Position numbers and translations under genes: made by a program. The notes beneath the pieces were generated by a model that worked only from the letters and a program-made list of their open reading frames with translations, was not told where the DNA came from and ran no database searches. This document shows, one piece after another, positions 1 through 51,758 of a stretch of 64,000 nucleotides of DNA. The DNA lies in contig OZ024742.1 of the NCBI GenBank assembly GCA_964016885.1, forward strand, positions 327,794,001 through 327,858,000, given 5' to 3'. Numbering within the stretch: position 1 is the first letter of the stretch; every line of letters begins with the position of its first letter. The stretch comes from Eledone cirrhosa (lineage: Eukaryota).

Positions 1-626
1 ACTATGAATTAGGGAGCTGCGCTTTTTGTCCGCAAATCCAAGTTCAGTCATACTTTGGTCCAAGCGGGTTTGTATATAACCCGTAGCTCCAATAATGATG
101 GGTATGAAGCTAAAGGTGTATCTTGGATACTGGATTTGTAAACTCCTCATCAATGGTCCGTAGATGTCCTCCTTCTCCTGTATTTTTCTGACAACGTTTA
201 CACAAGTGGGCAGCTGATCTCCACAACAGAACACGTTTCCAATGTGAGGTCCCAAACAACAATATCAGGCCGATTGTGCTTTAATTTGGTGGCAGTTTTT
301 ATTTTCAGGTTCCACCAGTATTTCTTAGTGCCATCTGTCTCAATATATTCTTCCTCGTTTGTTGTTAATTTTGTTTTCCGAAGTGCGTTCCAGATGGTTC
401 TAGCTATCCCTTCGTGTCTCATGGGGAGGTAGTAGCGAGATGACATTCTTTCGCAGCTGGCAACAATGTGGCTTACATCCTCGATCTTTGTTTTACATAG
501 CCTACATTTATTGTCAGCTGCTGCCCTCCTCTTTTGTGCAGCAGATATTTGGTAGGGAGTTCTTGTTCCTGTATTGCATAGAGATATCCCTCAAGGTGTG
601 ATGTCATAAACTTGTCGGAACTCCAT
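1..626 (-). mobile_element. R4/Dong-like RLE non-LTR retrotransposon, 5'-truncated fragment (3' end outside window)
   Basis: Near-identical to 12.5-13.1 kb copy; encodes RH and RPDIVVWD/EISCP restriction-like endonuclease motifs; frameshifted; abuts (TATG)n. Confidence 0.88.
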
Positions 627-790
627 GTATGTATGTATGTATGTATGTATGTATGTATGTATGTATGTATGTATGTATGTATGTATGTATGTATGTATGT
701 ATGTATGTATGTATGTATGTGAGTATGTATGTATGCTTTTATGTATGTATGCATGTATGTATGTAAGTATGTATGTATGTATGTATGTAT
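626..790. repeat. (TATG)n microsatellite between retroelements
   Basis: Direct reading; similar tracts at 9244-9387, 9818-9991, 12250-12360, 14803-14990, 15608-15673, 49583-49627, 50227-50284. Confidence 0.97.
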
Positions 791-3054
791 GAAGGATCAG
801 TGGTGGAGTGAGAAGGCTGGTGAGATACAAACTGCGTCTGATTCCAATAACACAAAGCTGTTGTACAATCTCTTGCGTGAGGTTTATGGACCGTCTTCTT
901 CTCTGGTGACACCGCTTCGCAGCAAGGATGGCAAAGAACTTCTTCGTGACTCACAAGGAATTCTACGAAGGTGGCGAGAGCACTTTGATGATCTTTTGAA
1001 TCAGCCGTCTTTCGTCAGTGAAGATTTCCTCAATCTCATTCCAGAAAGTCCTGTGAAAGTAGCTCTTGCAGAACCTCCGACGCTTGTGGAGGTTGCAGTG
1101 GCTATTTCGAAGCTGAACAGTGGAATATCTCCAGGTATGGATGGCATACACGGTGAGCTCCTACAATATGGTGGTGAGAGACTCCTGCAATATCTTCACT
1201 CTTTGTTTGGCAGGATATGGGCTAATGAATCCGTACCTGAGGACAGGAGAGATGCAGTAATGGTGGTCTTGTACAAGGGAAAGGGTAACAGGAACTATTG
1301 TGGGAACTACAGAGGTATATCATTACTTTCTGTCGTAGGGAAAGTTTTATGTAGCGTGCTTCTGGACTGTCTGCTGACACACATTGCAGATTGTGTTCTT
1401 CCTGAAAGTCAATCTGGTTTTCGTGCTGGACGCGGCACTACTGATATGATCTTCTCAGCTAGACAGCTCCAGGAGAAGTGCATGGAACAAGGCTTGGATC
1501 TGTATCAGGTTTTTGTCGATCTGACAAAAGCTTTCGATACTGTTAACAGAGATGCATTATGGAAGGTTCTCCAGAAGCTTGGTTGCCCTGATAAGTTCCT
1601 TGCTTTAGTTTGGTCTTTCCATGACGACATGAAGGTTTGGGTTAATGTCGAGGGTAAGATGTCGGAGCCTATCTCAGTAAAAAATGGAGTGAAACAGGGG
1701 GATATTCCAGCACCGACCCTGTTTGCCATATACTTTGCAATGGTTTTCTGTATTGCATTCAGGAATTGCGAGCATGGTGTTTACATCCGATATCGAACCT
1801 CAGGCAGCATATTTAACATCAGGCGCTTTGCTGCGAAGACAAAAGTATTTACATCAATCATAAGAGACCTCTTGTATGCAGATGATTGCGATCTTGTAGC
1901 GCACACAGAGAGTGATATGCAGCACATTTTGAATGCATTTTCTGACGTTTGCACTGCCCTACGTCTGACTGTCAGTCTCAAAAAAACCGTCGTCATGTAC
2001 CAACCTGCCCCTGGTAAGCAGTACACTGAACCAAACATCTATGTGTATAGCAAACGAGTTGGAGTGGTTGATCAGTTTGTCTACCTGGGGAGCACTGTCA
2101 ATCGATACGGCAACCTTGACAGTGAAATCTCACTTAGGATTAGGAAAGCAAGTGATGCTTTCGGAAAGCTAGAAAGGCGACTCTGGGGTCGGCGAGACAT
2201 ATGCAGGAGGACAAAGGTAAGGGTGTACAGGGCATGTGTGCTCTCTTGTCTTCTTTATGCCTGCGAGACCTGGGTCACATATCGACACCACTTTAAGCAA
2301 CTGGAGCGTTTCCATCAGATGTGTCTCAGACGGATCCATGGCGTTCACTGGAGGGACCACATCAGTGATGTCGAGATTTTGGAGAGCTCTATGTGTGACA
2401 GTATAGAAGCTCTTGTGCTTAAGCAACGACTCCGTTGGAGTGGTCACCTTGCCAGGATGAAGGATTCTAGAATACCAAAACAACTCTTTTATGGAGAGTT
2501 GGTTAAAGGAAAACGACCGCCACATAAACCAAAAAAGAGGTATAAGGATTCCTTGAAAGCCTCTCTGAAAGACGCTAACATCTCTGCTGATACATGGGAG
2601 AATATTGCTGCTGATCGTAATAAATGGAGAAAGACTGTATATGAGGGAAAAGTTGCTTTGAGGCATCTCGAATCGCATACGAGAAAGTAAAGCGGGATGT
2701 GAGGAAGGGCATTGCTGTTGCACTTCCAGACGGCGAGGGTCCTCCTATGGTGCTGACATGCAGCGTATGTGCGAGACTCTGCCTAAGCAAAGCTGGACTC
2801 GAAAGTCATCTTCGCAGTCATAAAGTAAGACCAGTGGTTGACTACCAGGCTGCTGTTGGAGATGCTACTCATCATGCTTGCCAAACATGTGGTAGGGAAT
2901 GTAAATCAGCAGGAGGGCTCAAGCGACATGCAAAAGTACACGAACTCCAACCACAGCCGACTATTCCCAGTGAATGTTTTGTTTGCCGACTCTGTGCAAG
3001 ACATTTTAGATAATTGGCTGGGTTAAAAAGCCACATTCGATCGCAGTGCTGTTA
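788..3054 (+). pseudogene. RTE reverse transcriptase with C-terminal C2H2 fingers (frameshift ~2657, stop ~3011)
   Basis: Motifs NYRGISLL, PESQSGFR, FVDLTKAFD, GVKQG, LLYADD, LRWSGH; 1-nt deletion relative to the 50.6 kb copy separates ORF 729-2690 from zinc-finger ORF 2699-3013; N-terminal YVCM run is microsatellite. Confidence 0.9.
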
Positions 3055-3394
3055 GTTGCTATCGTGTGTGTGTGTGTGTGTAGATATGCTTATGTGTGTG
3101 CGTGTGTGTGTATATATATATGTATATGCATATTATTATTGTTGTTGTCGTTATTATTATTGTTGTTATTATTATTATTATTATTGACGAAAGTGGATGT
3201 ACGTTTTTTGAAGCTCCGTGAGTAAGCAATTTTTGAGGATTAATTGTAGAGAATTGTTTATTTTTTGTACCGCTGAAGCATTATAAGACATTAATTTGTA
3301 TCCTGTGAAGGAATAACTCATAATATTTGGGCCTTTTGGCCCAAATATTTGAACTTTATTTTGAAAAAAATAATAATTTTTTTCTCAAAAAAAC

Positions 3395-5305
3395 ATGGCG
3401 GAGCCACGCCCCCTAGAGGCGGGTCTGCTGTCGTGCAACGGCGACTTGAGCGTTGAGAGGAGAGGTGAGGCGAGGAGCGCCACCAGCACGAATGTGAGCA
3501 GCGACAGTGCCAGCACCAACGGGCCGAGCGGCGCGGAAGGTGGTAACAGCGACAACACCAACACCAACAAGCCGAACAGCGCAGAAGGTGGTAATAGCGA
3601 GAGCACCAACAAAACGAACAGCACAGAGAGTAATAGTAGCGACAGCAGCAGCACCAACAAGGCCAACAGCACAGAAGCTAACCACGACACAGGGGAGAAC
3701 AACAACAGCAATAGCAGCAGCAACACCAACAAGAACAACAACAGTGACAACACCAACAAGAACACTTTCGCTGCTGTGGCAGCGGCTAAAAGGAGACCAT
3801 GCTACAGCATCGACTTAACCAACAGAGAGGAAAAGTTGGCCCAGGCCTGGAAAATCATAAATCAAGAGCAGACCTGGGCAAACTTAACTGTCCCGGCAGA
3901 AGCCATTGAGGCAGTGGAAAAAAGAACGGTGCATTTCAGATGCATCTCAGTAGAGACAAAGAGGGCAGCGATAATCGCCCAAGCTGACATAGAAGCCGCA
4001 CTGAAATACATCAGAGAGGACACAGACTTCATAGAGAGGGGCAGGCAATACGGCACCGTTTCGGTGCTGTTCAAGTCTGAAGCCCTCGCTGTGAAGCATT
4101 CAATGACCCCTTGCAAAACCAGCAAGGTCATAATGTACCCCTCCCACATGGGAAAACGAATAGCACGTGTGCGCATTCCCAGGATTCCACCAGGACTTGA
4201 TATGTGGTGGCTCCTGGGTTGCGTAATCGTGGAAGGAACGGATACAGTCCCGGTAGAGGCAACGAGAACTGCCAGGGACGACTGGTCCGGGGTTGATCTG
4301 GAGATACTGCTCCAAATCAGACCCGAAAACGTAAAAACAATCCCGGACCACATCCGCCTCCAAAACGGGAGGGTGTTGCATATAATGACTGAGGGCAAAA
4401 GGCCGCATTGTTTCCTTTGTGGGGAAACGACACACTTGCGAGCCTTCTGCCCTCAACTGCCGAAAAGCGCAAGGGGTCGAAAGATTCCACTGCTGGCGAC
4501 GCCGGGACAAGGACCACCAGCAACACCGTCAACAATGGAACCACCAAAATTGCACACCCAGGGGGGAAACGAGGAAAGCTCTCCCATTCCCCCTCCCCCC
4601 CAAAATACACACACGAACAAGAACATAAACACTCACTCAGACACAAACACGCTCACAGCCACAGACCCCTCATCCTCCAGCAGTGAAGATGAGGGAAAAC
4701 CAAAGTCCCCCAAAATACAAAAAACAAAACACAAAAAAAAAAGAAATCCACAAAGCACAAACACCCCCACAAAAAAAAATACACACACCACCCACACAAA
4801 CATTTTCCCCACAGCATCACCAACACAACCACCACAATCCCCCAAACGCAAACAAGCTAAACAGACACAAGAACAAATAGACACACAAACATCAGAAACT
4901 ACAGACACCCCACCCACAACAAACGCAGACACAATAGAAACAACACTAACAAAGCTATCACCACCACAATCACACGAACAAATAAAACCCGAGCAACAAA
5001 ACATTAAAAACTTCGTGCTTGCCAGAAGGGCCAACAAGGAATTGATGGCCCATGTAGCACGAAGCACAAACATCGAAAAAGACGGGGAAACATTTGAAGC
5101 GAGCACATTTCGCGTACCAGATAATTTGCTTCTGATGCGAATGTCGCTCGCTTCATACAAAGAAATTCGAAAGAGCTTTCCTCGGGATGTGGGAACCCCG
5201 AACGTAAAACCCACGTCAAGACTATTAAAGGGGTTCCCAAAAGAAACCCCACAAACCATGGAGGTCGAACCACCCGACCTTCACAAGACCCCGGAAGGTA
5301 AGTAA
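3395..5305 (+). CDS. Tx1-type ORF1 (636 aa), gag-like zinc knuckle
   Basis: Open frame; CFLCGETTHLRAFC = CX2CX4HX4C; N/S/T-rich N-terminus, P/T/K-rich C-terminus; 29 bp upstream of ORF2. Confidence 0.88.
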   Translation: MAEPRPLEAGLLSCNGDLSVERRGEARSATSTNVSSDSASTNGPSGAEGGNSDNTNTNKPNSAEGGNSESTNKTNSTESNSSDSSSTNKANSTEANHDTGENNNSNSSSNTNKNNNSDNTNKNTFAAVAAAKRRPCYSIDLTNREEKLAQAWKIINQEQTWANLTVPAEAIEAVEKRTVHFRCISVETKRAAIIAQADIEAALKYIREDTDFIERGRQYGTVSVLFKSEALAVKHSMTPCKTSKVIMYPSHMGKRIARVRIPRIPPGLDMWWLLGCVIVEGTDTVPVEATRTARDDWSGVDLEILLQIRPENVKTIPDHIRLQNGRVLHIMTEGKRPHCFLCGETTHLRAFCPQLPKSARGRKIPLLATPGQGPPATPSTMEPPKLHTQGGNEESSPIPPPPQNTHTNKNINTHSDTNTLTATDPSSSSSEDEGKPKSPKIQKTKHKKKRNPQSTNTPTKKNTHTTHTNIFPTASPTQPPQSPKRKQAKQTQEQIDTQTSETTDTPPTTNADTIETTLTKLSPPQSHEQIKPEQQNIKNFVLARRANKELMAHVARSTNIEKDGETFEASTFRVPDNLLLMRMSLASYKEIRKSFPRDVGTPNVKPTSRLLKGFPKETPQTMEVEPPDLHKTPEGK

Positions 5306-5334
5306 ACCTTTCCTCTCCCATTCATCCTGCCAGC

Positions 5335-8300
5335 ATGGCCATAAGAGTAGGAAGTTTAAATGTTCGTGGCCTGGGGTCGCCCTGGAAGCAAGGTCACTTG
5401 CTCAACGACCTCAGGTCACTAGGAATGGATGTAATTGCCATCAGCGAGACCAGAATTTCCGACACACGCGCACTGGCGCCGATTTTCGACGATTATCAGA
5501 TCTTTGCATCTGTTAGTCGGCCGGGAATGGGAGGTGGAGTGGCTGTGCTGTTTAGGAAATGTCTGGATCTCGAGGTAAGGTCAATCTTCCGGGATCCTGA
5601 CGGAAAGTTGGTGGTCCTGGACGTGAGCAATAGCGAAGGTGGTGCCTTTAGACTGGTGGCCGTCTACGCCCCTACTGGGGCCGGTCGGCCGGACTTCTTT
5701 AGGCGCCTGGAAAACTTTCTGCTTACGTCTCGCCCTTTACTGTTAATAGGGGATTGGAATGGCATCTTAGAAGCACGCTGGGATTGTGTGGGAGTATCTG
5801 ATAGAAGCGGGGGGTGCAAAAGCCTCAAGTACCTGATCAGCCAGTTTCAACTGTCTGACAGGTACCGACTAGATTTCCCTAATGCGCCAGTATGGACCTG
5901 GACCAATCGCATAGGGTCATCTAGATCGTACATAGATAGGATTTTCATTAGGAAAAGAGATAGAAATAGTGTAGGATGTCCACATTTTAAAACGGTTGCC
6001 TATTCAGATCACAAGCTTGTGATCTGTATGGTCGACCTAGATAAGACACGTAGGTTAGGACCTAGCTACTGGAAGCTAAACATGTCGTTTCCGGCACGTA
6101 AAGCTTACAGGGACCGGGTCAACAACTTAGTTAAGCAAAAGTTGACAGGGAGGGTTGTCAACAACAGGTGGTGGGGGGCACTCAAAAGAGAGATTAGAGC
6201 AACCTCGATAGGATTTAGCAAAGAAGTAGCAATAGAGAAAAATAGAAAGGAGGAGGGGCTGATAGCTAAGTTAGACGAGGCTATTTGTAGTGGCATTGCA
6301 ACAGACGTGCTAGCGGCGAGAATGGCACTAGACCATTTCTTCAATGCGAAACACGAAGGTTGCATTGTCAGAGCTAAGGCGCGTGCTCTGAGGAACGAGG
6401 GAACCAAAGCTGCCCGATGGGCTCGCTTTGCAGAGACGCAGCGTGGAAATAAAACCACAATTCGGTCTTTGACGGATCGAGATGGACACGAACTGAGCGA
6501 TTCCAAGCAGATGTGTGAGGCCTTTCGCCAGCACTTTGCTCGATTGTTCGGGAGGATGGGTGAGTCGGAGACGGCGGCGGACTTCAGTCCCTACCTCGAC
6601 GGCTTGCCACGCCTCTCGACGGCCGACGCTGAGCGCTGCGAAGAGCCGATAACATCAGCCGAAATTCAGGACGCCCTTGTCGGCTGCTCGAGTCGCAAGT
6701 CACCCGGTTTGGATGGTCTGCCCTACGAGCTTTACGTAAATATGCCAGACTTGTTCTCCGATCTCCTCGAAGCGCTCTACTGCAACTGGCAGCAGAACGG
6801 GAGCATTCCCAGTTCTGTGAGCCGTGGCGTAGTGACGCTGATAAGGAAAGACGAGAACAAGAGGGACACACTAGATAATTTCAGGCCCATAACCCTGCTC
6901 AACACAGAGTTTAAGATTTTGGCCAAGGTGTTAGCGAAAAGGTTGGCGCTTGTCGTCAAAGATTTGGTTGGGGAGGCGCAAACTTGCGCAATCCCGACCA
7001 GGTCCATACACGACAACCTCCACCTCATGCGATACATCATAGAGAGGGTTGGGTGCAAACCTGGCTTCGGTGGGGCTCTGATCAATTTAGATCAATCGAA
7101 AGCATTCGATAGGGTCGACCATCGGTACTTGGAGGCTGTCCTCGAGGCGGCTGGCTTCGGCCCCGTCTTCAGAAGCTGGATCGCTGCAATGTACAGCGGC
7201 ATCCGCTCGGTGGTCAAAGTTAATGGCCACCTCTCGGAACCGTTTCAGATCTCTCGATCGGTCCGTCAAGGGTGCCCTCTCTCCTCACTTCTGTACGTAT
7301 TGACTCTTGAGCCTCTACTGCGGAAGCTGGAGTTGTTGCAGGGCATCCCGCTCGAACCGGGACGTAGAAAGGCTGCGTCCGCTTATGCGGACGACATCAC
7401 CGTGATGGTGTCGGACACCTCGGAAATCGAGGTGATCCGCACCCATTTGGAGGAATATGAAAGGTTGACGGGAGCAAAACTTAACCCGGGAAAGTCGGTG
7501 GGCTTGCAGCTCGGCACCTGGAGAGGCAAGTCCATGCCGTCCAACAGCGTCGTTGGGCGCTGGACAGACGGACCGGTAAAGTTGCTCGGGGTTTGGTTCG
7601 GACCAGACCTCCAGGTGGATAAGAATTGGGACGAGGTGACGAGCAGGATAGCCAACCTCACCCAGAAATGGGCTGAGAGAAAGCTATCACTGAAAGGGCG
7701 GGCGGAGGTGGCGAACGCGTACATCGCGTCCGTCATCTACTACCGCCTGACCGTCGTGCCTTGCCCCCGTCCACGCCTCGCCAATTTGGAACGGCTCCTT
7801 TTCAAATTTTTGTGGAGGGGACGGGTCCCGTTGGTGAGGCGGTCCATCTGCTGCCAGCACCCTCTTCGTGGAGGGCTGGGCATGCCGTGGCTAATGATGC
7901 GCAGACATGCGCTGAGGCTGCGACATCTCCAGATATTTTGCCTAAACGGTGAACAGGTGTGGTCGCCGTTTGTTAGACGGGCCTTTCCGCAGCTCATCTC
8001 TTTGACTGAGCTGCAGTCCTGGGTCAAGAAGAGACCGAGACTGGGCGACTGGCATCTGGAATGTTGCCAGGCGCTCACTGCACTCTGCAAGGTGGGCAAT
8101 GCGGTCAGTGGAACTTCCACTCAAGATTTCTATAGAGGATTAGTGGAGGGCAAGTGCGATGACGTACTAGGAGAGGCTCTGGGCGTCAACGAAGTAGAAC
8201 TGACCAGTATGTTCCGGAGGACTTTCGAGCCGGGGACGATGGATAACTTCCAGAAATCCCTCGCTTGGCAGTGCTACCGGGGGGCGCTGCCGGTTCGGGA

Positions 8301-8754
8301 TAAACTCTACAGGCACGGAAGTGCTGTCAGACGAACCTGCCCGAGATGCGCGCAGAGCGACGAAACCGTTCTGCACGCACTCGTCCAGTGTCCGTGCATT
8401 GCTGACTTGTGGGGTTATGTCGAACAGCTATTGTCGCGTGTAGAACGGATCCGGCTATCGTCCGAGTCCATAGTGAAGATTGACCCGCCGCCTTCTTTTG
8501 GTCAGGAAGGGCAGGCAATTTTCCTCTGCCTGGTGGCAGTAGCGAAAGAGGTTGCATGGTGGACCAGGTTGAAAGGACTGAAGACAGACACTTTTCTCTT
8601 CGGCCAATCCCTCGTCAACTTCTTCAAGTTTCACTTGGAAAGGAAGGTGAGGGTGGAGAGAGAAGTGCTGCCCCCCAGTACATTTACTGAAAGGTGGGTG
8701 AATGTGGCGAGAATGGCCCGTGTGAGTGGGCCTACTCTGATCATGCGCCTGTAG
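5335..8754 (+). CDS. Tx1/L1 ORF2 (1139 aa): AP endonuclease + reverse transcriptase + CCHC finger
   Basis: SLNVRG, SET, VYAP, GDWN, SYIDR, SDH (APE); SPGLDG, FRPITLLN, DQSKAFD, VRQGCPLS, YADD (RT); CPRC..ETVLHALVQC. Confidence 0.95.
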   Translation: MAIRVGSLNVRGLGSPWKQGHLLNDLRSLGMDVIAISETRISDTRALAPIFDDYQIFASVSRPGMGGGVAVLFRKCLDLEVRSIFRDPDGKLVVLDVSNSEGGAFRLVAVYAPTGAGRPDFFRRLENFLLTSRPLLLIGDWNGILEARWDCVGVSDRSGGCKSLKYLISQFQLSDRYRLDFPNAPVWTWTNRIGSSRSYIDRIFIRKRDRNSVGCPHFKTVAYSDHKLVICMVDLDKTRRLGPSYWKLNMSFPARKAYRDRVNNLVKQKLTGRVVNNRWWGALKREIRATSIGFSKEVAIEKNRKEEGLIAKLDEAICSGIATDVLAARMALDHFFNAKHEGCIVRAKARALRNEGTKAARWARFAETQRGNKTTIRSLTDRDGHELSDSKQMCEAFRQHFARLFGRMGESETAADFSPYLDGLPRLSTADAERCEEPITSAEIQDALVGCSSRKSPGLDGLPYELYVNMPDLFSDLLEALYCNWQQNGSIPSSVSRGVVTLIRKDENKRDTLDNFRPITLLNTEFKILAKVLAKRLALVVKDLVGEAQTCAIPTRSIHDNLHLMRYIIERVGCKPGFGGALINLDQSKAFDRVDHRYLEAVLEAAGFGPVFRSWIAAMYSGIRSVVKVNGHLSEPFQISRSVRQGCPLSSLLYVLTLEPLLRKLELLQGIPLEPGRRKAASAYADDITVMVSDTSEIEVIRTHLEEYERLTGAKLNPGKSVGLQLGTWRGKSMPSNSVVGRWTDGPVKLLGVWFGPDLQVDKNWDEVTSRIANLTQKWAERKLSLKGRAEVANAYIASVIYYRLTVVPCPRPRLANLERLLFKFLWRGRVPLVRRSICCQHPLRGGLGMPWLMMRRHALRLRHLQIFCLNGEQVWSPFVRRAFPQLISLTELQSWVKKRPRLGDWHLECCQALTALCKVGNAVSGTSTQDFYRGLVEGKCDDVLGEALGVNEVELTSMFRRTFEPGTMDNFQKSLAWQCYRGALPVRDKLYRHGSAVRRTCPRCAQSDETVLHALVQCPCIADLWGYVEQLLSRVERIRLSSESIVKIDPPPSFGQEGQAIFLCLVAVAKEVAWWTRLKGLKTDTFLFGQSLVNFFKFHLERKVRVEREVLPPSTFTERWVNVARMARVSGPTLIMRL

Positions 8755-9387
8755 GCTGGTGAATTCGAGAAGGAGAGGGGTGCCCTTCCCGGGTGCCCTA
8801 GGAGCGTCGGGTGGCTCAGGACTGGTGGGGTGCTTGAGTCAACCCTGGGTGGTGATCCCTCTTATTGGGGAACTTTCATTGTTGTATTTTGATTGTTATT
8901 TTGTTTTTTGTTATTTATACTTACTCGATCTCTATGTAAACCCCCACTGTCCCTGTCTATTGTGTTGTCCCCTATATGTCGGCCCTTGTGGCCAATAAAT
9001 GAAATCATTATTATTATTATTATTGTTGTTATTAATGTATGTGTGTGTATATGTGTGTGTGAGTGTGTGTGTGTGGGTGTGTGTGTATGTGTGTGTGTAT
9101 GTATATATATATATATATATATTTCTTTTTATTTTATTTTATTATTTTTTATTTTTATTTATTTATTATTATTATTTTTTTTTTTTCTTTCTCCTCGTGC
9201 AATGGCCATACTCGATAACGAGGGGGCAGCCATCATCATGCAGGTATGTATGTATGTATGTATGTATGTATGTATGTATGTATGTATGTATGTATGTATG
9301 TATGTATGCTTGTATGTATGTATGCATGTATGTATGCATGGTATGTATGTATGTATGTATGTATGTATGTATGTATGTATGTATGTA

Positions 9388-9818
9388 TTCTAGGAGAAGG
9401 AAAACTCCGGGAGAGATGACCCCTTAGCCTTTGTCAAGGCAGAATTCTAGGAGAAGGAATACTCTGATATAACACCTGCAACTCTGATGGTATCCAATGA
9501 TGTTGACTTGTTCTTCTTTTTGGTAAATATCATCTTGGTTAAGAGAGTGGGACTGGCTTTGTGCAGTGCCTTTGCTCATTATAAAAGCTTCACGGCACAG
9601 GCATTGCTTTATATCTGGAGATCTCTCTGCACTTGTCATCACATGGTGCCATGGGCCCAGCACTATGTGTCAATAATTGTTACAGGTGTAGTGTTTGTAC
9701 CAGAGTTTTCATGTCGCAGGCTGGACTAAAAAGTCACACTCGTTCAGCGCATCGGTAGGGGTTCTCCTACTAGATGTAAAGTAGTGGCCGTACTCGAAAA
9801 CGAGTTGGCAGCCACCAT
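9388..9818 (+). mobile_element. Non-coding RTE-related element family A, 5'-truncated
   Basis: Matches 3' two-thirds of 14992-15604; ends TACTCGAAAACGAGTTGGCAGCCACCAT + (GTAT)n. Confidence 0.85.
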
Positions 9819-9831
9819 GTATGTATGTATG

Positions 9832-9862
<31 letters not shown>

Positions 9863-9991
9863 GTATGCATGTATGTATGCATGTATGTATGCATGTATGA
9901 ATGTATGTATGTATGTAAGTATGTGTGTATGTATGTATGTAAGTATGTATGTATATATGTAAGTATGTATGTATGCATATATGTATGTATG

Positions 9992-12248
9992 TTATCTCTT
10001 TCTCTTAATTTTGAGTATATTATTTTGACCGGCCCCCTTCCTGGTGGCAAGGTTGTAAAAGAAAATAAATTGTCATCCCTTGAATCGCAAGAATGTTTTG
10101 CAAATTTTGAAGCTGCCAGCTATCGCAGCCATCTGTAGAATATGAATTAGGGAGCTGCGCTCTTTGTCCGCAAATCCAAGTTCAGTCTTACTTTGGTCCA
10201 AACGGGTTGGTATATAATCCGTAGCTCCAATAATGATGGGTATGAAACAAAAGGTGTATCTTGGATACTGGATTTGTAAACTCCTCATCAATGGTCCATA
10301 GATGTCCTCCTCCTGTATTTTTCTGACAACGTTTACACAAGTGGGCAGCTGATCTCCACAACAGAACACGTTTCCAATGTGAGGTCCCAAACAACAATAT
10401 CAGGCCGGTTGTGCTTTAATTTGGTGGCAGTTTCTATTTTCAGGTTCCACCAGTATTCCTTAGTGCCATCTGTCTCAATATATTCTTCCTCGTTTGTTGT
10501 TAATTTTATTTTCCGAAGTGCGTTTCAGATGGTTCTAGCTATCTCTTCGTGTCTCATGGGGGGGGGGGGGGGGTAGTAGCAAGATGACATTCTTTCGCAG
10601 CTGGCAACAATGTGGCTTACATCTTCGATCTTTGTTTTACATAGTCTACATTTATTGTCAGCTGATGGCCCTCCCCTTTTGTGCAGCAGATATTTGGTAG
10701 GGAGTTCTTGTTCCTGTATTGCATAGAGATATCCCTCAAGGTGTGATGTCATAAACATGTCGGAACTCCATGCCAGGCTTTTTGAGTGGTTTATCCCCTC
10801 TATGGTCTGTGTTTTACGTCTCAAGTATCCATGAACAACTTTTTCTGTAAATTGGTCAATTTTTTCATCTTGTTTGAACATTGAATAGGATCTTCCGATT
10901 TCTCTGGAGGAGAGATTTATATCAGGCTTTATTCCATATCTGTCCTCCAGATCAGTGGCTATTCTAATGATATATTTTTTTTCATGCTCATAAACCTGGG
11001 CAAGATGGTTGCCAACCTTTTCCTCTGTTGAAGATGTTGCTTCAGTGTTACTATCCGGGTCTCATATGATGTTAATATGGATATTAGACTCCGGCCACCT
11101 TCCTTGCGTGAGAAGTATAGCCTATCCACATCACCATTGATGTTAAAGTTCCCAGTAACACTGAAAAGTTTTCGAGTTCTAACATCCATCTCACTTAGTT
11201 CTTGCATTGACCAGTTCAGCAGGCCAAAAGTTGGCGTTATAATTGGCACAGCATAAGTATTGTGGGCAATGTAGTTGTACGCTGACAGTTCTGATGACCA
11301 TATTTTCTTTACTCTTCTGAGGTATTCAGTTCTGGTTCTCTCATTATTTATAGGTCCATCATATCTGACATTCTCATCCTGTCCAAGATATCTGTAGTTG
11401 TCACCTGACTATAGAAGTTGTATTGTCAGGCCGTTTATCTCTAGATTTCTAGAGGAGGGCACAGTTCTTCCACGTTTTACTGCCTAATATGCACACTTGG
11501 ACTCACCAAATTTCATTTTTATGTCTGCTGAAAATTGTGTAATGAGGTCCAATTGTTTCTTGATGTCATTGATATTTGGCCCATACAACTTCAGGTCATC
11601 AACAAAGAAAAGATTGGAGATATATCTGGACCCACTTCTTTGTACACCTTGTTTCCTGAGTAGGTAAGATAGTGGATTAAGTGAGAGAAGGAAGAGTAGC
11701 ACTGACAAGCTATCACCCTGTAAGATGCCCTTCTGGTAATGTATCTTATCAGTCTTAACTTGCTCCTTCTCACCTCTAAGGATAAAATTGGTGTACCAGT
11801 TCTTGGTCAGACGTTCAACAGCAGCTACCAGTGGTTGTGGGACTTTGGCTAACTGTAAAGCCTTAACAATCCACCCATGAGGTACACTATCAAATGCTTT
11901 TTGATAGTCCAGCCACACCACAGTCATGTTTCTGCGATTCTTTGTTGTTTTTTCTTGAATCATTTTATTAGTTAGTGGGTGATCTATGCAACCCCACACC
12001 TCCCTCTTTCCACCAGCTTGCTCAGGTGTTATGATGTTGTTGGTAGCACAGTGATCCTGTAAGAACAGGTTAAGGCACCCAGTATATAATTTATACATGA
12101 TGTTTTGGCAGGCTATTGGGCGGTATTTTTAGCAAGGGTGGTTTGGCTATTTTGGGGAATGGGGAGAGTAGTGGCAGTTGATAACCATCTGGGCAGTTCT
12201 TGTGTGCCTTTAATGGTTTCTGTAAACAGTCGTATGAGATCTTGCCAA
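9992..12248 (-). mobile_element. R4/Dong-like RLE LINE, 5'-truncated, disrupted
   Basis: ORF pieces 11484-12098 (YQKAFDSV, QGDSLS, FVDD), 10959-11249, 10525-10881 (CRLC..H..C), 10073-10390; 3' end joins (CATA)n. Confidence 0.9.
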
Positions 12249-12360
12249 TATGTATGTATGTATGTAAGTATGTATGTATGTAAGTACGTATGTATGTAAG
12301 TATGTATGTATGTAAGTACGTATGTATGTAAGTACGTATGTATGTATATATGTATGTATG

Positions 12361-14803
12361 TTTTCTCTTTCTCTTAATTTCGAGTATATTTTTTTGACCG
12401 GCCACCTTCCTGGTGGCAAGGTTGTAAAAGAAAAGAAATTGTCATCCCTTGAATCGCAAGAATGTTTTGCATATTTTGAAGGTGCCAGCTATCGCAGCCA
12501 TTTGTAGACTATGAATTAGGGAGCTGCGCTTTTTGTCCGCAAATCCAAGTTCGGTCATACTTTGGTCCAAGCGGGTTGGTATATAACCCGTAGCACCAAT
12601 AATGATGGGTATGAAGCTAAAGGTGTATCTTGGATACTGGATTTGTAAGCTCCTCATCAATGGTCCGTAGATGTCCTCCTTCTCCTGTATTTTTCTGACA
12701 ACGTTTACATCAAGTGGGCAGCTGATCTCCACAACAGAACACGTTTTCAATGTGTGGTCCCAAACTACAATATCAGGCCGGTTGTGCTTTAATTTGGTGG
12801 CAGTTTTTATTTTCAGGTTCCACCAGTATTCCTTAGTGCCATCTGTCTCAATATATTCTTCCTCGTTTGTTGTTAATTTTGTTTTCCGAAGTGCGTTCCA
12901 GATAGTTCTAGCTATCCCATCGTGTCTCATGGGGAGGTAGTAGCGAGATGACATTCTTTCGCAGCTGGCAACAATGTGGCTTACATCCTCGATCTTTGTT
13001 TTACATAGCCTACATTTATTGTCAGCTGCTGGCCCTCCTCTTTTGTGCAGCAGATATTTGGTAGGGAGTTCTTGTTCCTGTATTGCATAGAGATATCCCT
13101 CAAGGTGTGATGTCATAAACTTGTCGGAACTCCATGCCAGGCTTTTTGAGTGGTTTATCCCCTCTATGGTCTGTGTTTTACGCCTCAAGTATCCATGCAC
13201 AACTTTCTCTGTAAATTGGTCAATTTTTTTTTCTTGTTTGAACATTGAATAGGATCTTCCGATTTCTCTGGGTGAGAGATTTATATCAGGCTTTATTCCA
13301 TATCTCTCCTCCAGATCAGTCGCTATTCTAATGATATTTCTTTTTTCATGCTCATAAACCTGGGCAAGATGGTCGCCAACCTTTTTCCTCTGTTGAAGGT
13401 GTTGCTTCAGTGTTACTATCCGGGTCTCATATGTTGTTAATATTGATTTTAGACCCCGGCCACCTTCCTTGCGTGAGAAGTATAGCCTATCCACATCACC
13501 ATTGATGTTAAAGTTCCCAGTAACACTGAGAAGTTTACGAGTTCTAACATCCATCTCACTTAGTTCTTGCAATGACCAGTTCAGTAGGCCAAATGTTGGC
13601 GTTATAATTGGCACAGCATAGGTATTGTGGGCAATGTATTTGTTGTATGCTGACAGTTCTGATGACCATATTTTTTTTACTCTTCTGAGGTATTCAGTTC
13701 TGGTTCTCTCCTTATTTATGGGTCCATCATATCTGACATTCTCATCCTGTCCAAGATATCTGTAGTTGTCACCTGACTGCAGAGGTTGTATTGTCAGGCC
13801 GTTCATATCTAGATTTCTAGAGGAGGGCACAGCTCTTCCACGTTTTACTGCCAAATATGCACACTTGGACTCACCAAATTTCATTTTGATGTCGGTTGAA
13901 AATTGTGTAATGAGGTCCAATTGTTTCTTGATGTCATTGATATTTGGCCCATACAACTTCAGGTCATCAACAAAGAAAAGATGGGAGATACTTCTGGGCC
14001 CACTTCTTTGTCCACCTTGTTTCCTGAGTAGGTAAGATAGTGGATTCAGTGAGAGAACGAAGAGTAGTACTGACAAGCTATCACCCTGAAAGATGCCCTT
14101 CTGGTAATGTATCCTATCAGTCTTAACCTGCTCCTTCTCACCTCTAAGGATCAAATTGGTGTACCAGTTCTTGGTCAGGCGTTCAACAGCAGCTACTAAT
14201 GGTTGTGGGACTTTAGCTAACTGTAAAGCCTTAATAATCCACCCATGAGGTACACTATCAAATGCTTTTTGATAGTCCAGCCACACGACAGTCATGTTTC
14301 TGCGATTCTTTGTTGTTTTTTCCTGAATCATTTTGTTAGTTAGTAGGTGATCTATGCAACCCCACACCTCCCTCTTTCCACCAGCTTGCTCAGGTGTTAT
14401 GATGTTGTTGGTAGCACAGTAATCCTGTAAGAACAGGTTAAGGCACCCAGTATATAATTTATACATGATGTTTTGGCAGGCAATTGGGCGGTAATTTTTA
14501 GCAAGGGTGGTTTGGCTATTTTTGGGAATGAGGAGAGTAGTGGCAGTTGATAACCATCTGGGCAGTTCTTGTGTGCCCTTAATGGTTTCTGTAAACAGCC
14601 GTATGAGATCTTGCCGATAGAAAGTGAAATTCTTCAACCAGTATCCTGTAATGAGGTCTGGGCCTGGCGATTTCCTATTCGACATTTTCTGTAGAGCTGT
14701 TTCCAGTATTGACCCATCTATGTCATATTGTTTTGTCTGGACATGTTGGCAGTAGTCCTGTTCCAGTTGTTTTAGCCAATTAGCTTGTCTGTTGAATCCG
14801 TCA
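12361..14803 (-). mobile_element. R4/Dong-like RLE LINE, 5'-truncated, ORF still open
   Basis: About 790 codons uninterrupted; ~80 bp 3'UTR with GCCACC-AGGAA-GGTGGC hairpin; both ends in (CATA)n. Confidence 0.92.
12442..14803 (-). CDS. RT + CCHC + restriction-like endonuclease (N-terminally truncated)
   Basis: KSPGPD, NYRPIAC, DYQKAFDSVPH, GIFQGDSLS, FVDDLKLY, GGRGL, CRLCKTKIEDVSHIVASC, RHD, RPDIVVWD, EISCP. Confidence 0.9.
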
Positions 14804-14869
14804 TGTATGTATGTATGTATGTATGTATGTATGTATGTATGTATGTATGTATATAAGTATGTATGTATG

Positions 14870-14901
<32 letters not shown>

Positions 14902-14991
14902 TGTATGTATGTATGTATGTATGTATGTATGTATGCATGCATGCATGTATCTATGTATGTATGTATGTAAGTATGTATGTAAGTATGTATG

Positions 14992-15604
14992 TCAGGTCAC
15001 CAGTTGGTGCTACTGGTAACATGTATCCCAGTACAACCTGTCTCATGGTCGGCTCGTTGGCGACTAAACTGGCAACCCCACCAAGGTTTCTTGGTGAGGA
15101 GGGTGACTTTGGACATCCTGCAGGACTAAAAACAAAACCTGTCAAATGGCAAAGGAGCTCTTAAAGTCAATGGTCATCCAAAATCACCGGGAGAGATGAC
15201 ACCTTAGCCTTTGTCAAGGCAGAATTCTAGGAGAAGGAATACTCTGATATAACACCTGCAACCCTGATGGTATCCAATGATGTTGACTTGTTCTTCCCTT
15301 TGGTAAATATCATCTTGGTTAAGAGAAGAAAGTGGGACTGGCTTTGTGCACTGCCTTTGCTCACTTTAAAAGCTTCACGGCACAGGCATTTCTTTATATC
15401 TGGAGATCTCTCTGCACATGTTGTCACATGGTACCATGGGTCCAACACTATGTGTCAATAATTGTCACAAGTGTAGTGTTTGTACCAGAGTTTTCATGTC
15501 GCAGGCTGGACTAAAAAGTCACACTCGTTCAGCGCATCGGTAGGGCTTCTCCTACATGGATATAAAGTAGTGGCCGTACTCGAAAACGAGTTGGCAGCCA
15601 TCAT
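14992..15604 (+). mobile_element. Family A non-autonomous element, full length (~610 bp)
   Basis: Same 5' start (CAGGTCACCAG) and 3' end as 15674 and 49628 copies; contains GGAGAAGGAA(A/T)ACTCTGAT, reminiscent of RTE 5'UTRs; TATG flanks. Confidence 0.88.
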
Positions 15605-15673
15605 ATAAGTATGTATGTATGTATGTATGTATGTATGTATGTATGTATGTATGTATGTATGTATGTATGTATA

Positions 15674-16279
15674 TCAGGTCACCAGTTGGTGCTACTGGTA
15701 ACATGTATCACAGTACAACCTGTCTCATGGTCGGGTCGTTGGCGACTAAACTGGCAACCCCACCAAGGTTTCATGGTGAGGAGAGTGACTTTGGACATCC
15801 TGCAGGACTAAAATCAAAACCTGTCAAAGGGCAAAGGAGCTCTTAAGAGTCAATGGCCATCCAAAATCACTAGGAGAGATGACACCTTAGCCTTTGTCAA
15901 GGCAGAATTCTAGAAGGAAAACTCTGATATAACACCTGCAACCCTGATGGTATCCAATGATGTTGACTTGTTGTTCTCTTTGGTAAATATCATCTTGGTT
16001 AAGAGAGTGGGACTGGCTTTGTGCAGTGCCTTTGCTCACTATAAAAGCTTCACGGCACAGTCATTGCTTTATATCTGGAGATCTCTCTGCACTTATCGTC
16101 ACATGGTACCATGGGCCCAGCACTATGTGTCAATAATTGTCACAAGTGTAGTGTTTGTACCAGAGTCTTCAAGTCGCTGGCTGGACTAAAAAGTCACACT
16201 CGTTCAGCGCATCGGTAGGGGTTCTCCTACATGGATATACAGTAGTGGCCGTACTCGAAAATGAGTTGGAAGCCACCAT
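15674..16279 (+). mobile_element. Family A non-autonomous element, full length
   Basis: Tandem diverged copy of 14992-15604 separated by (TATG)n. Confidence 0.88.
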
Positions 16280-16485
16280 GTATGTATGTATGCATGTATG
16301 TATGTATGAATTTGTATGAATCTTTGTACAAATGTATGTAAGAATGTATTCATGTATGCATGTATGTGCTTATGAATCTCTCTCTCTATATATATATTTG
16401 TGTGTACGTGTGTGTACCTGTGTGTATATCTGTGTGTGTATCTGTATATATCTGTATATATATATATATACTGTATGTGCTTATG

Positions 16486-19829: not shown

Positions 19830-22425
19830 TTAGTTAAGCAAAACAAGACCACAAATTTCACAAGGAAGACATTATTAAAAGATTGTCAACAATTTTTAGT
19901 TTGATGTAAGGAATGTAAAGAATAATAATAATATTAATAATAATAATGTCCGTTTACAATTGTTTCGCTATTCCATATAATATTTCTGGATCAGATGACT
20001 ATATATCATTATTGATCTAGTTCAGTTGAAAATAATTAACATATTTAAAAACAGAGCGGCTCATCGGAACTTCAAAGGAATATAAATTAAAGTAAGGAGA
20101 GAATGTTACATAATGTAATGTTCCATATATTGGTATTTCACTATGGTGTCCTGCTTGTATCAATTGTCAGTCATAATCAAGCAGGATTCAGCTGTCGAGG
20201 CTGTATTGTGTGTGATCGGCCTATGGGTAACAAGATGGCCGCCCAAGGACATATTTACCTTACTAATTAGAGGGTGGTTTCAGGGGAAGTAACTCCTCGA
20301 GAGATTAGAAATTGTGGGTAGTTTATAGTTAAGTGCTAATTTTTAATTTTTTTAATTGAGTGACAATGTAGGGGAGGTAATTTATAATTATCTAAGTTAG
20401 TTATAGCTATTTAACTTATTAGCTACAATTAAAAATGGGGCTAGATGACTATGTTGGGTCAACTATTCTATTGGCGAAGGAATTAGCCCTTCGATGTTGA
20501 CAGCTAATAGTTACCTCCGTTCTATCGTTAATCGGTAGAGGTCGTGATAGAGTTATGTAATATGCTTCGGTAATACAGAGATCACAAGATTTTCTTCGTC
20601 CATTGAACGGTTGGGCCCTAGCTACGATATCCCATTTTAGTGAGTGTTCAATGTTGCTTAATTTAAGGTTTTTAATGAGCCTAGCTAGAGATGTCGAACA
20701 TCTGTTGCTAGGGTCTCGGAAGGAAAAAGAGTGCGCGTTATAGCGTACCTTAAAAGGGTTAGAGGTAGACCCGATATAAGAGCTGGTATTCGAAGCAGTT
20801 TTAACCGTGCACGTATAGACTATGTTGGGTGTCAGGCAGTGTCCATTTAATGGGCATGCATTAGGGTAACGGCAGTTGCAGTTGCTTCTGCGGTTAATGA
20901 GAGTAGGGTAGTTTAACCAGGCGGTTGGTCAGTGCTAGAAGGATTATATGGGGGAGGTGTGCTACTAGAGTAATTATTGGTGTAGTGGCGTGGTGTATTT
21001 GATAGGGGTGGTGGTACCGCGGTGTGGGAGTTATACTGTCTTAGTTCATGATGGTTACTGAATGCGATGTGGCTAGGTTAGGTGTTATTTTTATTAAAGA
21101 GTTTGTAATATCTATGGTGGTGGTGGGGGGGGGGGTTTAGATAGGATAGAGAAGAAGCGTTTAGGGATATTAGTAGCTAGATTAGATGAGAATGGGGGGT
21201 TAAGCCATGTGATATTTCTAGGTCTATTCCTCCTAGGGGCTCTAGTGGAGTTGGTAGGGGCCTTCCAAGGGTTATTATTACCTGGGGATTTGTTATTTGT
21301 CATCCCATTTCTCATTTCTATTCTAGGGTTGATTTTTAGTTTGCTACTTGGAGTGGGGAGCAGGCCGCTGCCACCATTAAACTTCCCTGTATAGGTGCTG
21401 TTACTGCTAAAATTCCGGTGAATCTGGCTATATGCTAAGGTATTTCTAGTTCTAGTGTTAAATTTATTATGGTGAATTGCTGTGTTATGGCATGTAGTAA
21501 ATGAATTGTTCATAACCAAAGTCAGAAAGAGCTTTATTATAATATTGTGCATGGTTTATAAATATCTCCTCATTTGCTGATAGCATGGAGATCCTATACG
21601 AGATATATTTGATTACTGCTCTGATGACTGCCGGTGGGTGGTTAGAGTGTGGGCTAATATATGTGAGTATTTCACCTGGTTTATGGTAAGGGTAATATAG
21701 GTTATTGTTGAGATCCAAGGTGACGTCTAGGAAGTTTACTACTTTATGGTTCGGCTCGATGGTGATAGAGAGACCGTTATTTTTAAAGAATCTATGTAAT
21801 TGTTTTTTAGCAAATCAATGCCCTGATTAGTGCAATTGTGGACTGCAAATAGGGCGTCGTCCCTGTATATTCCGCCTTGCAAGGGTTGGATTACGGCTCT
21901 GATGTTATGTAATAGGTAAATTCCAACTAAATCGGTGATTTGCGCAGTCTCTTTAGCCCATCGTGATGTCAAAGTTGTCTGTTCTATCTTTTCTAGTCCA
22001 GAGTGCTCCGTTGAATTCAATGATGGTCTGCCTAGCCATAAGTATGATGTTAATCTCATTATTGGTTATGTCCGAGTTGGTGCTGGCTAGGGTTAATGCT
22101 TTGTTGAGCAGTTCCGGGGTTTCTGAAGCGTAATAGCTGTCGATGTCAAATTGGATGAACCTCATAGATTGCTTGGACCTTAGATCGGAGAACCATCTAA
22201 TGACTTGGCCGGTGTTGGACCACAGCTTGTAGGTGATATCATCTCGTAGCCCAGGGATTATCCTATCAAGGATGTTCTTACTGATACGACCTAGGTCGGA
22301 TGTGGTTGGGCTTATAAGTCTAATAGATGGGTCCTCTATAAAGTTTGGCTTATGATCCTTGAGAGAGAACCTTGGGGTTGTTGGTACATAAGGGTGGGTA
22401 AATCTATCCAGATGCAAGTCCTTAA

Positions 22426-22428
<3 letters not shown>
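19830..22428 (-). mobile_element. Penelope-like element, degenerate, 5'-truncated, in (TA)n
   Basis: RT pieces (KDHKPNF..RLISP, QFDIDSYY, YRDD, YYPYHKP..SNHPP); GIY-YIG read by hand at ~20700-20885: CNCRYPNACPLNGHCLTPNIVY..SYIGSTSNPFKVRYNAH. Confidence 0.88.
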
Positions 22429-22502
<74 letters not shown>

Positions 22503-22579
22503 TTTGAAGAATAGGTAGGTTTGTGAGATGTTTCATGCGACTAAGCACCGGTTCAGTGTATTTATGGCCGATCTGGAGC

Positions 22580-51262: not shown

Positions 51263-51758
51263 GTATGCATGTAAGCATGTATGCATGTATGTATATATAT
51301 ATATGTATGTATACATATACGTACGTATATCACCAATAGTCTAAAAAAACGAAAGATGTAGATATTTAGCGAAGTATTTGTGACTTCAAAATCTAAATAT
51401 TTAAGAAATTCTAATGATGAAACAGAAATATACTTTTTGAAATCCTAGTAAGGAAAGAAGTAAGAAAAAATCCGAAAAACAGCAAAAAATAATGAACTTA
51501 TTATTGTGAAATATTCTGTTAAATAATATGAAAATACGAAAGGAAATATGAAAAGAATTTTGATACAAGAGAAAAAAATCGGAAATATTTCATTTTCCTT
51601 AATGATAATCCACATGAAGAATATATGTTTATGTTGTAGAGAGAAAGAAAAAAAAAATATATATATATAAGATCTGCTCATTCGGCAAAATAGACACATA
51701 TGCACACGCACACAAGAATCTATACATACAAACAAAGACACAGATACAGACACGCACA

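Follow-up and report, generated by a model that had tools for sequence, protein, structure and literature searches.

Target specificity is reported for most clades among the retrotransposons without long terminal repeats (non-LTR retrotransposons) that carry a restriction-like endonuclease (RLE) (PMC4640811). Among the elements that insert into simple repeats, Dong targets TAA, Waldo ACAY, Kibi TC and Koshi TTC (PMC3812793), and in most insects, molluscs and cnidarians (TAA)n is described as the R4/Dong target (PMC7998251). RTE and Dong-R4 elements have been recently active in Octopus (PMC13282606, PMC9115989), with five abundant and recently active Dong-R4 families and 1,129 recent insertions in Octopus vulgaris (PMC13282606), and in a short-read test an octopus Dong showed little activity (PMC9115989). 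The accessible text of these two studies mentions no target, and the word 'target' is absent from the Dong-R4 paper (PMC13282606). Here, a window of 64,000 nucleotides from the octopod Eledone cirrhosa (contig OZ024742.1; G000:C3:327794001-327858000, the whole stretch analyzed) was compared with these systems and with the remainder of its genome of 2,995,841,428 bases. Positions 1-16279 of the window are occupied by a chain of R4/Dong-like elements, an RTE-type long interspersed element (LINE) and copies of a short RTE-related family, family A, lying on either side of tetranucleotide tracts.

In this chain, retrotransposons have piled up in (GTAT/CATA)n tracts. It probably arose by the independent convergence of each group on this repeat, which would account for both the pile-up and the opposite facing of the groups. 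In the literature searched, largely open-access and exclusive of Repbase and Dfam entries, neither an R4/Dong element specific for (CATA)n nor such a shared hub was found. The locus combines strand-locked chains from two clades on one microsatellite with a strong repeat preference in an RTE-type family, RTEs being usually thought weakly specific.

Insertion of R4/Dong-like elements into (CATA)n

The R4-like element is approximately 4.2 kb in length and contains a single frame of 1,174 codons from stop to stop, which was intact in four of four full-length copies examined. In the copy at locus L070, the frame encodes 1,168 amino acids whose only Pfam matches are RVT_1 and zf-RVT, and no apurinic/apyrimidinic-type endonuclease (APE) domain was matched in Pfam. 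C-C-H-C, RH, PD and KxxxY motifs are conserved in the alignment, and we take these to be C-terminal motifs of the restriction-like endonuclease. The predicted structural model was closest to R2 (E 1.8e-34), followed by L1 (6e-22); unlike in R2, the N-terminus showed no C2H2 pattern and no Pfam match. Residues 21-73 are predicted to form a three-helix bundle (pLDDT 81-90), a fold that would be compatible with the diverged N-terminal Myb/SANT-like domain reported for R4/Dong (PMC7998251). No Myb match occurred among the 25 Pfam families listed of 30, and a Foldseek search with a low-confidence model of the domain returned no matches. Among the 120 protein homologs listed of 416, the closest named one came from Argonauta hians (65%, covering 60% of the query) and none was a named R4 or Dong sequence. 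The element is termed R4/Dong-like on the basis of its architecture, motifs and microsatellite target. It shares with Dong, DongAg and DongBg of the R4 clade the single open reading frame (ORF), reverse transcriptase (RT), CCHC and restriction-like motifs, the lack of an N-terminal zinc finger and the insertion into microsatellites, but differs in using (CATA)n, in at least two families, instead of (TAA)n (PMC7998251, PMC3812793).

Of the 4,329 genomic occurrences of the R4-like 3' end, 3,171 continue into CATAYAYA and two have the opposite phase within 3 nt. CATA was also present at 70 of 74 distinct 5' junctions, the exceptions being L060 (a short CATA stretch), L156, L173 (GTAT) and L180, and 54 of 60 3' flanks began with CATA. 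Because the 5' junctions of full-length and truncated copies alike carry the repeat, CATA is the target of the element and not its tail, and R4-like elements insert into any (CATA)n. The Dong-type (TAA)n target does not apply to this element. Its insertion into (CATA)n agrees with the first-pass annotation of the window, which had proposed that an RLE element uses such tracts as its target. An older R4-like family, about 50% identical in the RT, shares the target, its end being followed by CATA in 18 of 20 cases. Among microsatellite-specific R4/Dong-like elements, (CATA)n is a new target. Target-site duplications (TSDs) gave no signal for R4 (9 of 63 copies; shuffled mean 6.2, maximum 11).

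Waldo is an APE-type insect element of the R1 clade, in contrast to the RLE architecture found here, and a target common to both is therefore convergent. The repeat class is the same, as ACAY includes ACAT, one phase of CATA (PMC3812793). The last 399 bp of the R4-like copy at 12362-14802 were 100% identical in 40 of 40 scored genome copies, which points to a very young family. With its intact full-length copies, this family would make a change of RLE target from TAA to CATA directly testable. A third recurring end, followed by CATAC in seven cases and CACAC in one, was observed at L008, L015, L021, L088, L096, L157, L185 and L287; none of the eight could be tied to an R4 frame within 1.5 kb.

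Preference of RTE-type elements for GTAT

In L224, a single frame of the RTE-type element contains an APE domain (Exo_endo_phos) together with RVT_1. The element also has C2H2 fingers, and no second long frame was listed in five fuller copies. Its assignment draws on this architecture and on its resemblance to the octopus RTE-2_OV as described in PMC9115989, with which it shares the APE-RT ORF, the C2H2 fingers and a microsatellite-rich 3' untranslated region (UTR); the reported ORF is 3,327 nt and that found here about 3.5 kb from the first ATG, the two being likened by description. All 22 RTE termini scored ended in (CAT)2-3 and ran into GTAT in 11 cases, ATAT in seven and other sequence in four. 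In a by-eye reading of the 5' flanks of 30 RTE loci, the 5' end lay in a GTAT-type repeat at eight; the others extended past the locus, were rearranged or started elsewhere.

Family A is about 610 bp long and has no ORF. Positions 247-394 of the copy at 15674-16279 are 71% similar to the RTE 5' UTR (over 153 nt, E 5e-14), and its last 34 nt are 79% similar to the RTE end, the matches near the 3' end being weak (79-80% over two 34-nt pieces, E 0.003). These similarities characterize family A as a putative bipartite non-autonomous RTE-type element, whose direct parent is probably another RTE family, since it is only 71-79% similar to the RTE of the window. Bov-A, RTESINE, WALLSI3 and the Ceph-SINEs likewise combine a part resembling an RTE 5' UTR with an RTE-like 3' end and have no ORF (PMC5786205); family A differs in its distance from the RTE at hand and in that no tRNA was detected. 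In a search for a tRNA-, 5S- or 7SL-derived head, ARAGORN found no tRNA and Rfam gave no such match, although a decayed head could escape detection.

Of the 27,395 genomic occurrences of the exact 18-nt family A end, 6,972 (25%) are followed by (GTAT)3, 5,264 (19%) by (AT)6 and two by (ACAT)3, the opposite phase. In 94 copies with both flanks, a non-random sample of which many came from loci chosen for R4, the four bases past the terminal CAT were GTAT in 51, ATAT in 30, other in 13 and ACAT in none. A background of 800 kb, taken at fixed positions on contigs C1-C4, contained 434 available sites for each of the two GTAT/CATA phases and 17,452 for (AT)n. Arithmetic on these counts gives family A a preference for GTAT over (AT)n of about 53-fold per site and 22-fold per tract, which bears out the suggestion that an RTE-type element re-targets GTAT. 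As both phases offer equal numbers of sites, the strict polarity of family A and R4 is real and beyond chance, and the orientation of the two is not random genome-wide. Since each clade has a fixed repeat phase, their opposite facing requires no interaction between them. RTE signatures have been described in which the terminal repeat influences the first TSD base and possibly primes by pairing (PMC6007223), but the published pattern is an overlap of one or two bases plus an upstream T stretch, as compared with the 20-50-fold GTAT preference of family A. No RTE preference of this size for one tetranucleotide repeat was found in the literature searched.

The same flanks show where the repeat behind family A comes from. 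In the 94 copies, the upstream flanks had a GTAT content of 0.52 and the downstream flanks one of 0.50, and the AT contents of the 5' and 3' flanks were correlated (rho 0.61). Irregular TSDs of at least 10 nt linked both flanks in 18 of 89 copies (shuffled mean 6.0, with no more than 11 in any of 200 shuffles). Of these, 17 began at the AT within the terminal CAT, and lengths were mostly 11-24 nt. Where a TSD is legible, the repeat that follows family A is a duplicate of the target. An intrinsic GTAT tail of RTE and family A was therefore rejected in view of the (CAT)2-3 ends, the (AT)6 ends, the TSDs and the symmetric flanks, and the earlier statement that the RTE makes GTAT tracts mostly does not hold. 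At L002 (1400-2200), a family A copy lies within the (TA)n loop of a palindromic element resembling a miniature inverted-repeat transposable element.

Origin of the retrotransposon chains

Among 34 background tracts of at least four units, an RTE-type or R4 neighbor stood in the expected orientation at 22 and in the contrary orientation at three, and nine had none; GTAT/CATA tracts are insertion hubs. In the favored reading, R4/Dong-like elements would insert into (CATA)n and RTE-type elements would prefer the GTAT strand of purine-pyrimidine repeats, so that the two come to face each other. On the R4 side, recognition of the repeat may lie with the restriction-like endonuclease and the N-terminal three-helix domain, in keeping with what has been proposed for other R4/Dong elements. 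On the other side, the RTE endonuclease would nick alternating purine-pyrimidine DNA, and the terminal CAU of the RTE RNA would pair with the target and prime reverse transcription, in line with the model in PMC6007223; such pairing would set the phase as AT|RTAT and rule out the opposite one. The steps build on established knowledge of target-primed reverse transcription. Each insertion would leave repeat on both sides and thereby keep the target while dividing it into two parts; with its TSD of about 11-24 nt, it would also add a little repeat. Because insertions preserve and split their target, the tracts would keep receiving insertions and the chains would grow. The notion of a self-growing landing pad, put forward in the first-pass annotation, thus survives in a weak form, through TSDs and possibly R4, but not by way of RTE tails.

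Several observations weigh against this reading. The long CATA runs upstream of young R4-like copies, described below, are not accounted for by it. The background is small, with 34 tracts of at least four units in 800 kb, and four tracts of L194 probably represent one region; the three neighbors in contrary orientation lie across mixed repeat. TSDs are legible in irregular flanks only. One family A copy (L063) has a CATA tract upstream, and near positions 1400-1500 of L009 and L011 full-length family A copies have a GC-rich, non-repeat 5' flank with GTAT behind; these flanks may be 5' template-switch chimeras or may reflect true tail delivery. A modest enrichment of R4 behind RTE ends may also exist (odds ratio 1.8, p = 0.21 with tracts of at least three units).

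A rather unlikely but substantive alternative is that R4 itself builds the tracts. Its reverse transcriptase would add CATA at the 5' junction by slippage or by repeated template jumps onto the target, and each insertion would be a fresh landing pad for R4 and RTE-type elements. In 34 copies sharing an identity of 99% or higher with L070, the median perfect CATA run was 52 nt at the 5' junction versus 20.5 nt at the 3' junction, the 5' run being longer in 29 (p = 1.3e-4). With mismatches allowed, the near-perfect runs were 85.5 and 31.5 nt, respectively (27 of 34 copies), while family A showed no run-length asymmetry (p = 0.34). The asymmetry could reflect either repeat added at the 5' junction or a long upstream binding stretch with a cut near one end, and the latter, acting near the end of an existing long tract, would give the same picture. 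Of 60 R4 3' ends (30 from the 100%-identical set on C1 and C2 plus the first 30 pattern matches on C1), 16 faced an RTE-type end, 20 the 5' side of another R4 and 24 neither. The share behind another R4 exceeded that of background tracts (5 of 76, p = 9e-5), but the excess was lost with longer tracts (5 of 30, p = 0.13), and 14 of 21 background perfect runs of at least 40 nt lay away from R4. It is hence with considerable reserve that we consider R4 as a maker of its own target, adding tens of bases of new (CATA)n per insertion in a telomerase-like manner and drawing both R4 and the GTAT-preferring RTE. If this were true, a large share of the tetranucleotide microsatellite in the genome would be a retrotransposon-built niche used across clades, and a new route of microsatellite birth would be at hand.

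The model of the first-pass annotation, in which the RTE carries a (GTAT)n tail that gives rise to tracts and on which R4 depends, appears improbable. RTEs that generate microsatellites have been published for moths (PMC2887409), an RTE-type end does lie opposite 16 of the 60 R4 ends, and GTAT at L009 and L011 stands solely on the 3' side. Nevertheless, R4 was not significantly enriched behind RTE-type ends over the 800-kb background at any of three cut-offs, the background counts, taken from tracts that no R4 end follows, being 9 of 30 for tracts of at least four units (p = 0.80), 13 of 76 for at least three and 5 of 18 for at least six (p = 1.0), and a preferential location of R4 in tracts that follow RTE or family A ends was rejected. 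Together with the (CAT)2-3 end of the RTE, the family A ends that run into pure (AT)6, the family A TSDs and the symmetric GTAT content of the two flanks, this leaves the model largely refuted for family A.

Passive accumulation, in which broad insertion is followed by retention in repeat-rich, gene-poor patches and polarity arises from terminal repeats alone, is very improbable. It has been invoked for Drosophila Waldo-A/B near CA repeats (PMC3812793), and the abundance of both family A and R4 would suit it. However, truncated R4 copies with many internal breakpoints carry CATA directly at the 5' junction, and these junctions include copies 100% identical to each other, a pattern of which post-insertion selection is an unlikely source.

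An artificial joining of the chain through the microsatellite during assembly is the least credible explanation. Tracts of 110-190 nt do exceed what 150-nt reads can bridge and no read spans a chain tract, but the interval contains no N, its three R4 copies have different breakpoints and differ in their identity to L070, junctions of these types are found again at dozens of loci, and raw 150-nt reads of run X24 contain joints of truncated R4, (ATGT)n and family A (2+2 with repeat between), which document the junction type and not this locus, the exact chain resting on the assembly. In octopod genomes, short-read tools likely under-call those insertion polymorphisms that lie within long microsatellites, and GTAT tracts would be poor markers in octopod genome work.

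Architecture of the chain and neighboring elements

The chain opens with a 5'-truncated R4/Dong-like copy on the minus strand (1-626, 97.9% identical to the full-length copy of L070), whose 3' end lies about 149 bp to the left of the window, in L031, and is followed by a CATA-phase tract. A plus-strand (GTAT)n tract (625-791; period 4 and 41.8 copies in TRF) leads from its 5' junction to that of a 5'-truncated RTE-type LINE (792-3185, plus strand), which retains the RT (RVT_1), a decayed C2H2 region and the start of a microsatellite-rich 3' UTR, this part ending in (ATT)n. It is 96.9% identical to a copy at 50281-51011 whose frame gives C2H2 matches. The remainder of the 3' UTR and the terminus in (CAT)3 follow at 9007-9239 (plus strand), matching an uninterrupted copy that ends at 51262; between the two parts lies an L1/Tx1-type insert (3186-9006). 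Further plus-strand (GTAT)n tracts flank a 5'-truncated family A copy (9389-9818, plus strand, 93-97% identical to other copies), one at 9244-9388 and one at 9819-9992, the latter separating family A and R4 tail to tail. The RTE end at 9239 and the family A start at 9389 are approximate coordinates.

Two 5'-truncated R4/Dong-like copies then stand in tandem on the minus strand, a more diverged one (9993-12248, 94.8% to L070) and a very young one whose frame is open to the stop (12362-14802, 99.9%), with a plus-strand (GTAT)n tract between them (12249-12361). The next tract (14803-14991, plus strand) precedes a full-length family A copy of about 610 bp (14992-15604, plus strand), a (GTAT)16 tract (15609-15672, plus strand) and another full-length family A copy (15674-16279, plus strand), and a degenerate GTAT tract (16280-16367, plus strand) forms the right end of the chain.

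The seven insertions recognized in the first-pass annotation are in place, but its count of three families overlooked the L1/Tx1 insert, an eighth insertion. Nor is every junction of TATG/CATA type, because this insert sits in the (ATT)n of the RTE and carries (ATT)n at both junctions. RTE and family A do lie on the plus strand as described, while the ending given for them, CAT-GTATGTAT, is literal in two of four cases (9818 and 16279); the RTE ends in CAT-GCAG-GTAT and the family A copy at 15604 in CAT-ATAA-GTAT. The minus-strand location of all three R4-like copies was upheld, with both 3' ends visible in the window reading AA-CATAC and the third also being in CATA phase.

The chain extends leftward into a GTAT tract, a near-full-length older R4-like copy and another long GTAT tract. 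This copy (L031, G000:C3:327784001-327794000, about 5750-9760, minus strand) is frameshifted, has GTAT tracts on both sides and shows 26-54% protein identity. A second, smaller chain is present at 49300-51290 of the window, where an RTE-type terminus ending near 49582, a family A copy (49628-50226) and a 5'-truncated RTE (50281-51262), all on the plus strand, are joined by GTAT/AT repeats.

The nested L1/Tx1-type element (plus strand, full length, 5.8 kb or about 36% of the interval) contains ORF1 at 3395-5305 and ORF2 at 5335-8754, the latter with Exo_endo_phos, RVT_1 and zf-RVT. Its two ORFs and the APE-RT-zinc order of ORF2 support the L1/Tx1-type classification, with Tx1 as the putative subgroup. 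Kibi and Koshi are also placed in Tx1. They share APE-type architecture and simple-repeat insertion with the nested element, but use TC and TTC (PMC3812793) where it sits in (ATT)n. The L1/Tx1 end occurs 1,563 times in the genome and was followed by ATTATT in 21 of 30 sampled cases; the four 5' ends resolved to the first base, out of 34 loci, all followed (ATT)n, two of them within RTEs, one in the 3' UTR and the other in the 5' UTR. The element thus likely targets (ATT)n. A preference for RTE-borne ATT tracts was rejected, as no enrichment was found (3 of 30 versus 3 of 41 background tracts).

In four of 14 listed RTE copies (L227, L229, L237 and L240), L1/Tx1-like coding sequence was observed no farther than 700 nt upstream of the start codon of the RTE, and nesting of L1/Tx1 in the (ATT)n of an RTE 5' UTR was confirmed at L291. 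A second L1/Tx1-type family, from about 7300 of L032 to about 2800 of L031, has a 3' end that runs into (ATCT)n and not (ATT)n, and is possibly another microsatellite-targeting family. Outside the chain, a run of 200 N occupies 37989-38188 of the window. Frames at 20449-22540 and 45665-46993 seem to resemble Penelope-like RT/GIY-YIG elements, and decayed minus-strand frames at 22519-24177 and 40823-42139 seem similar to a LINE of CR1 type and to a second family of RTE type.

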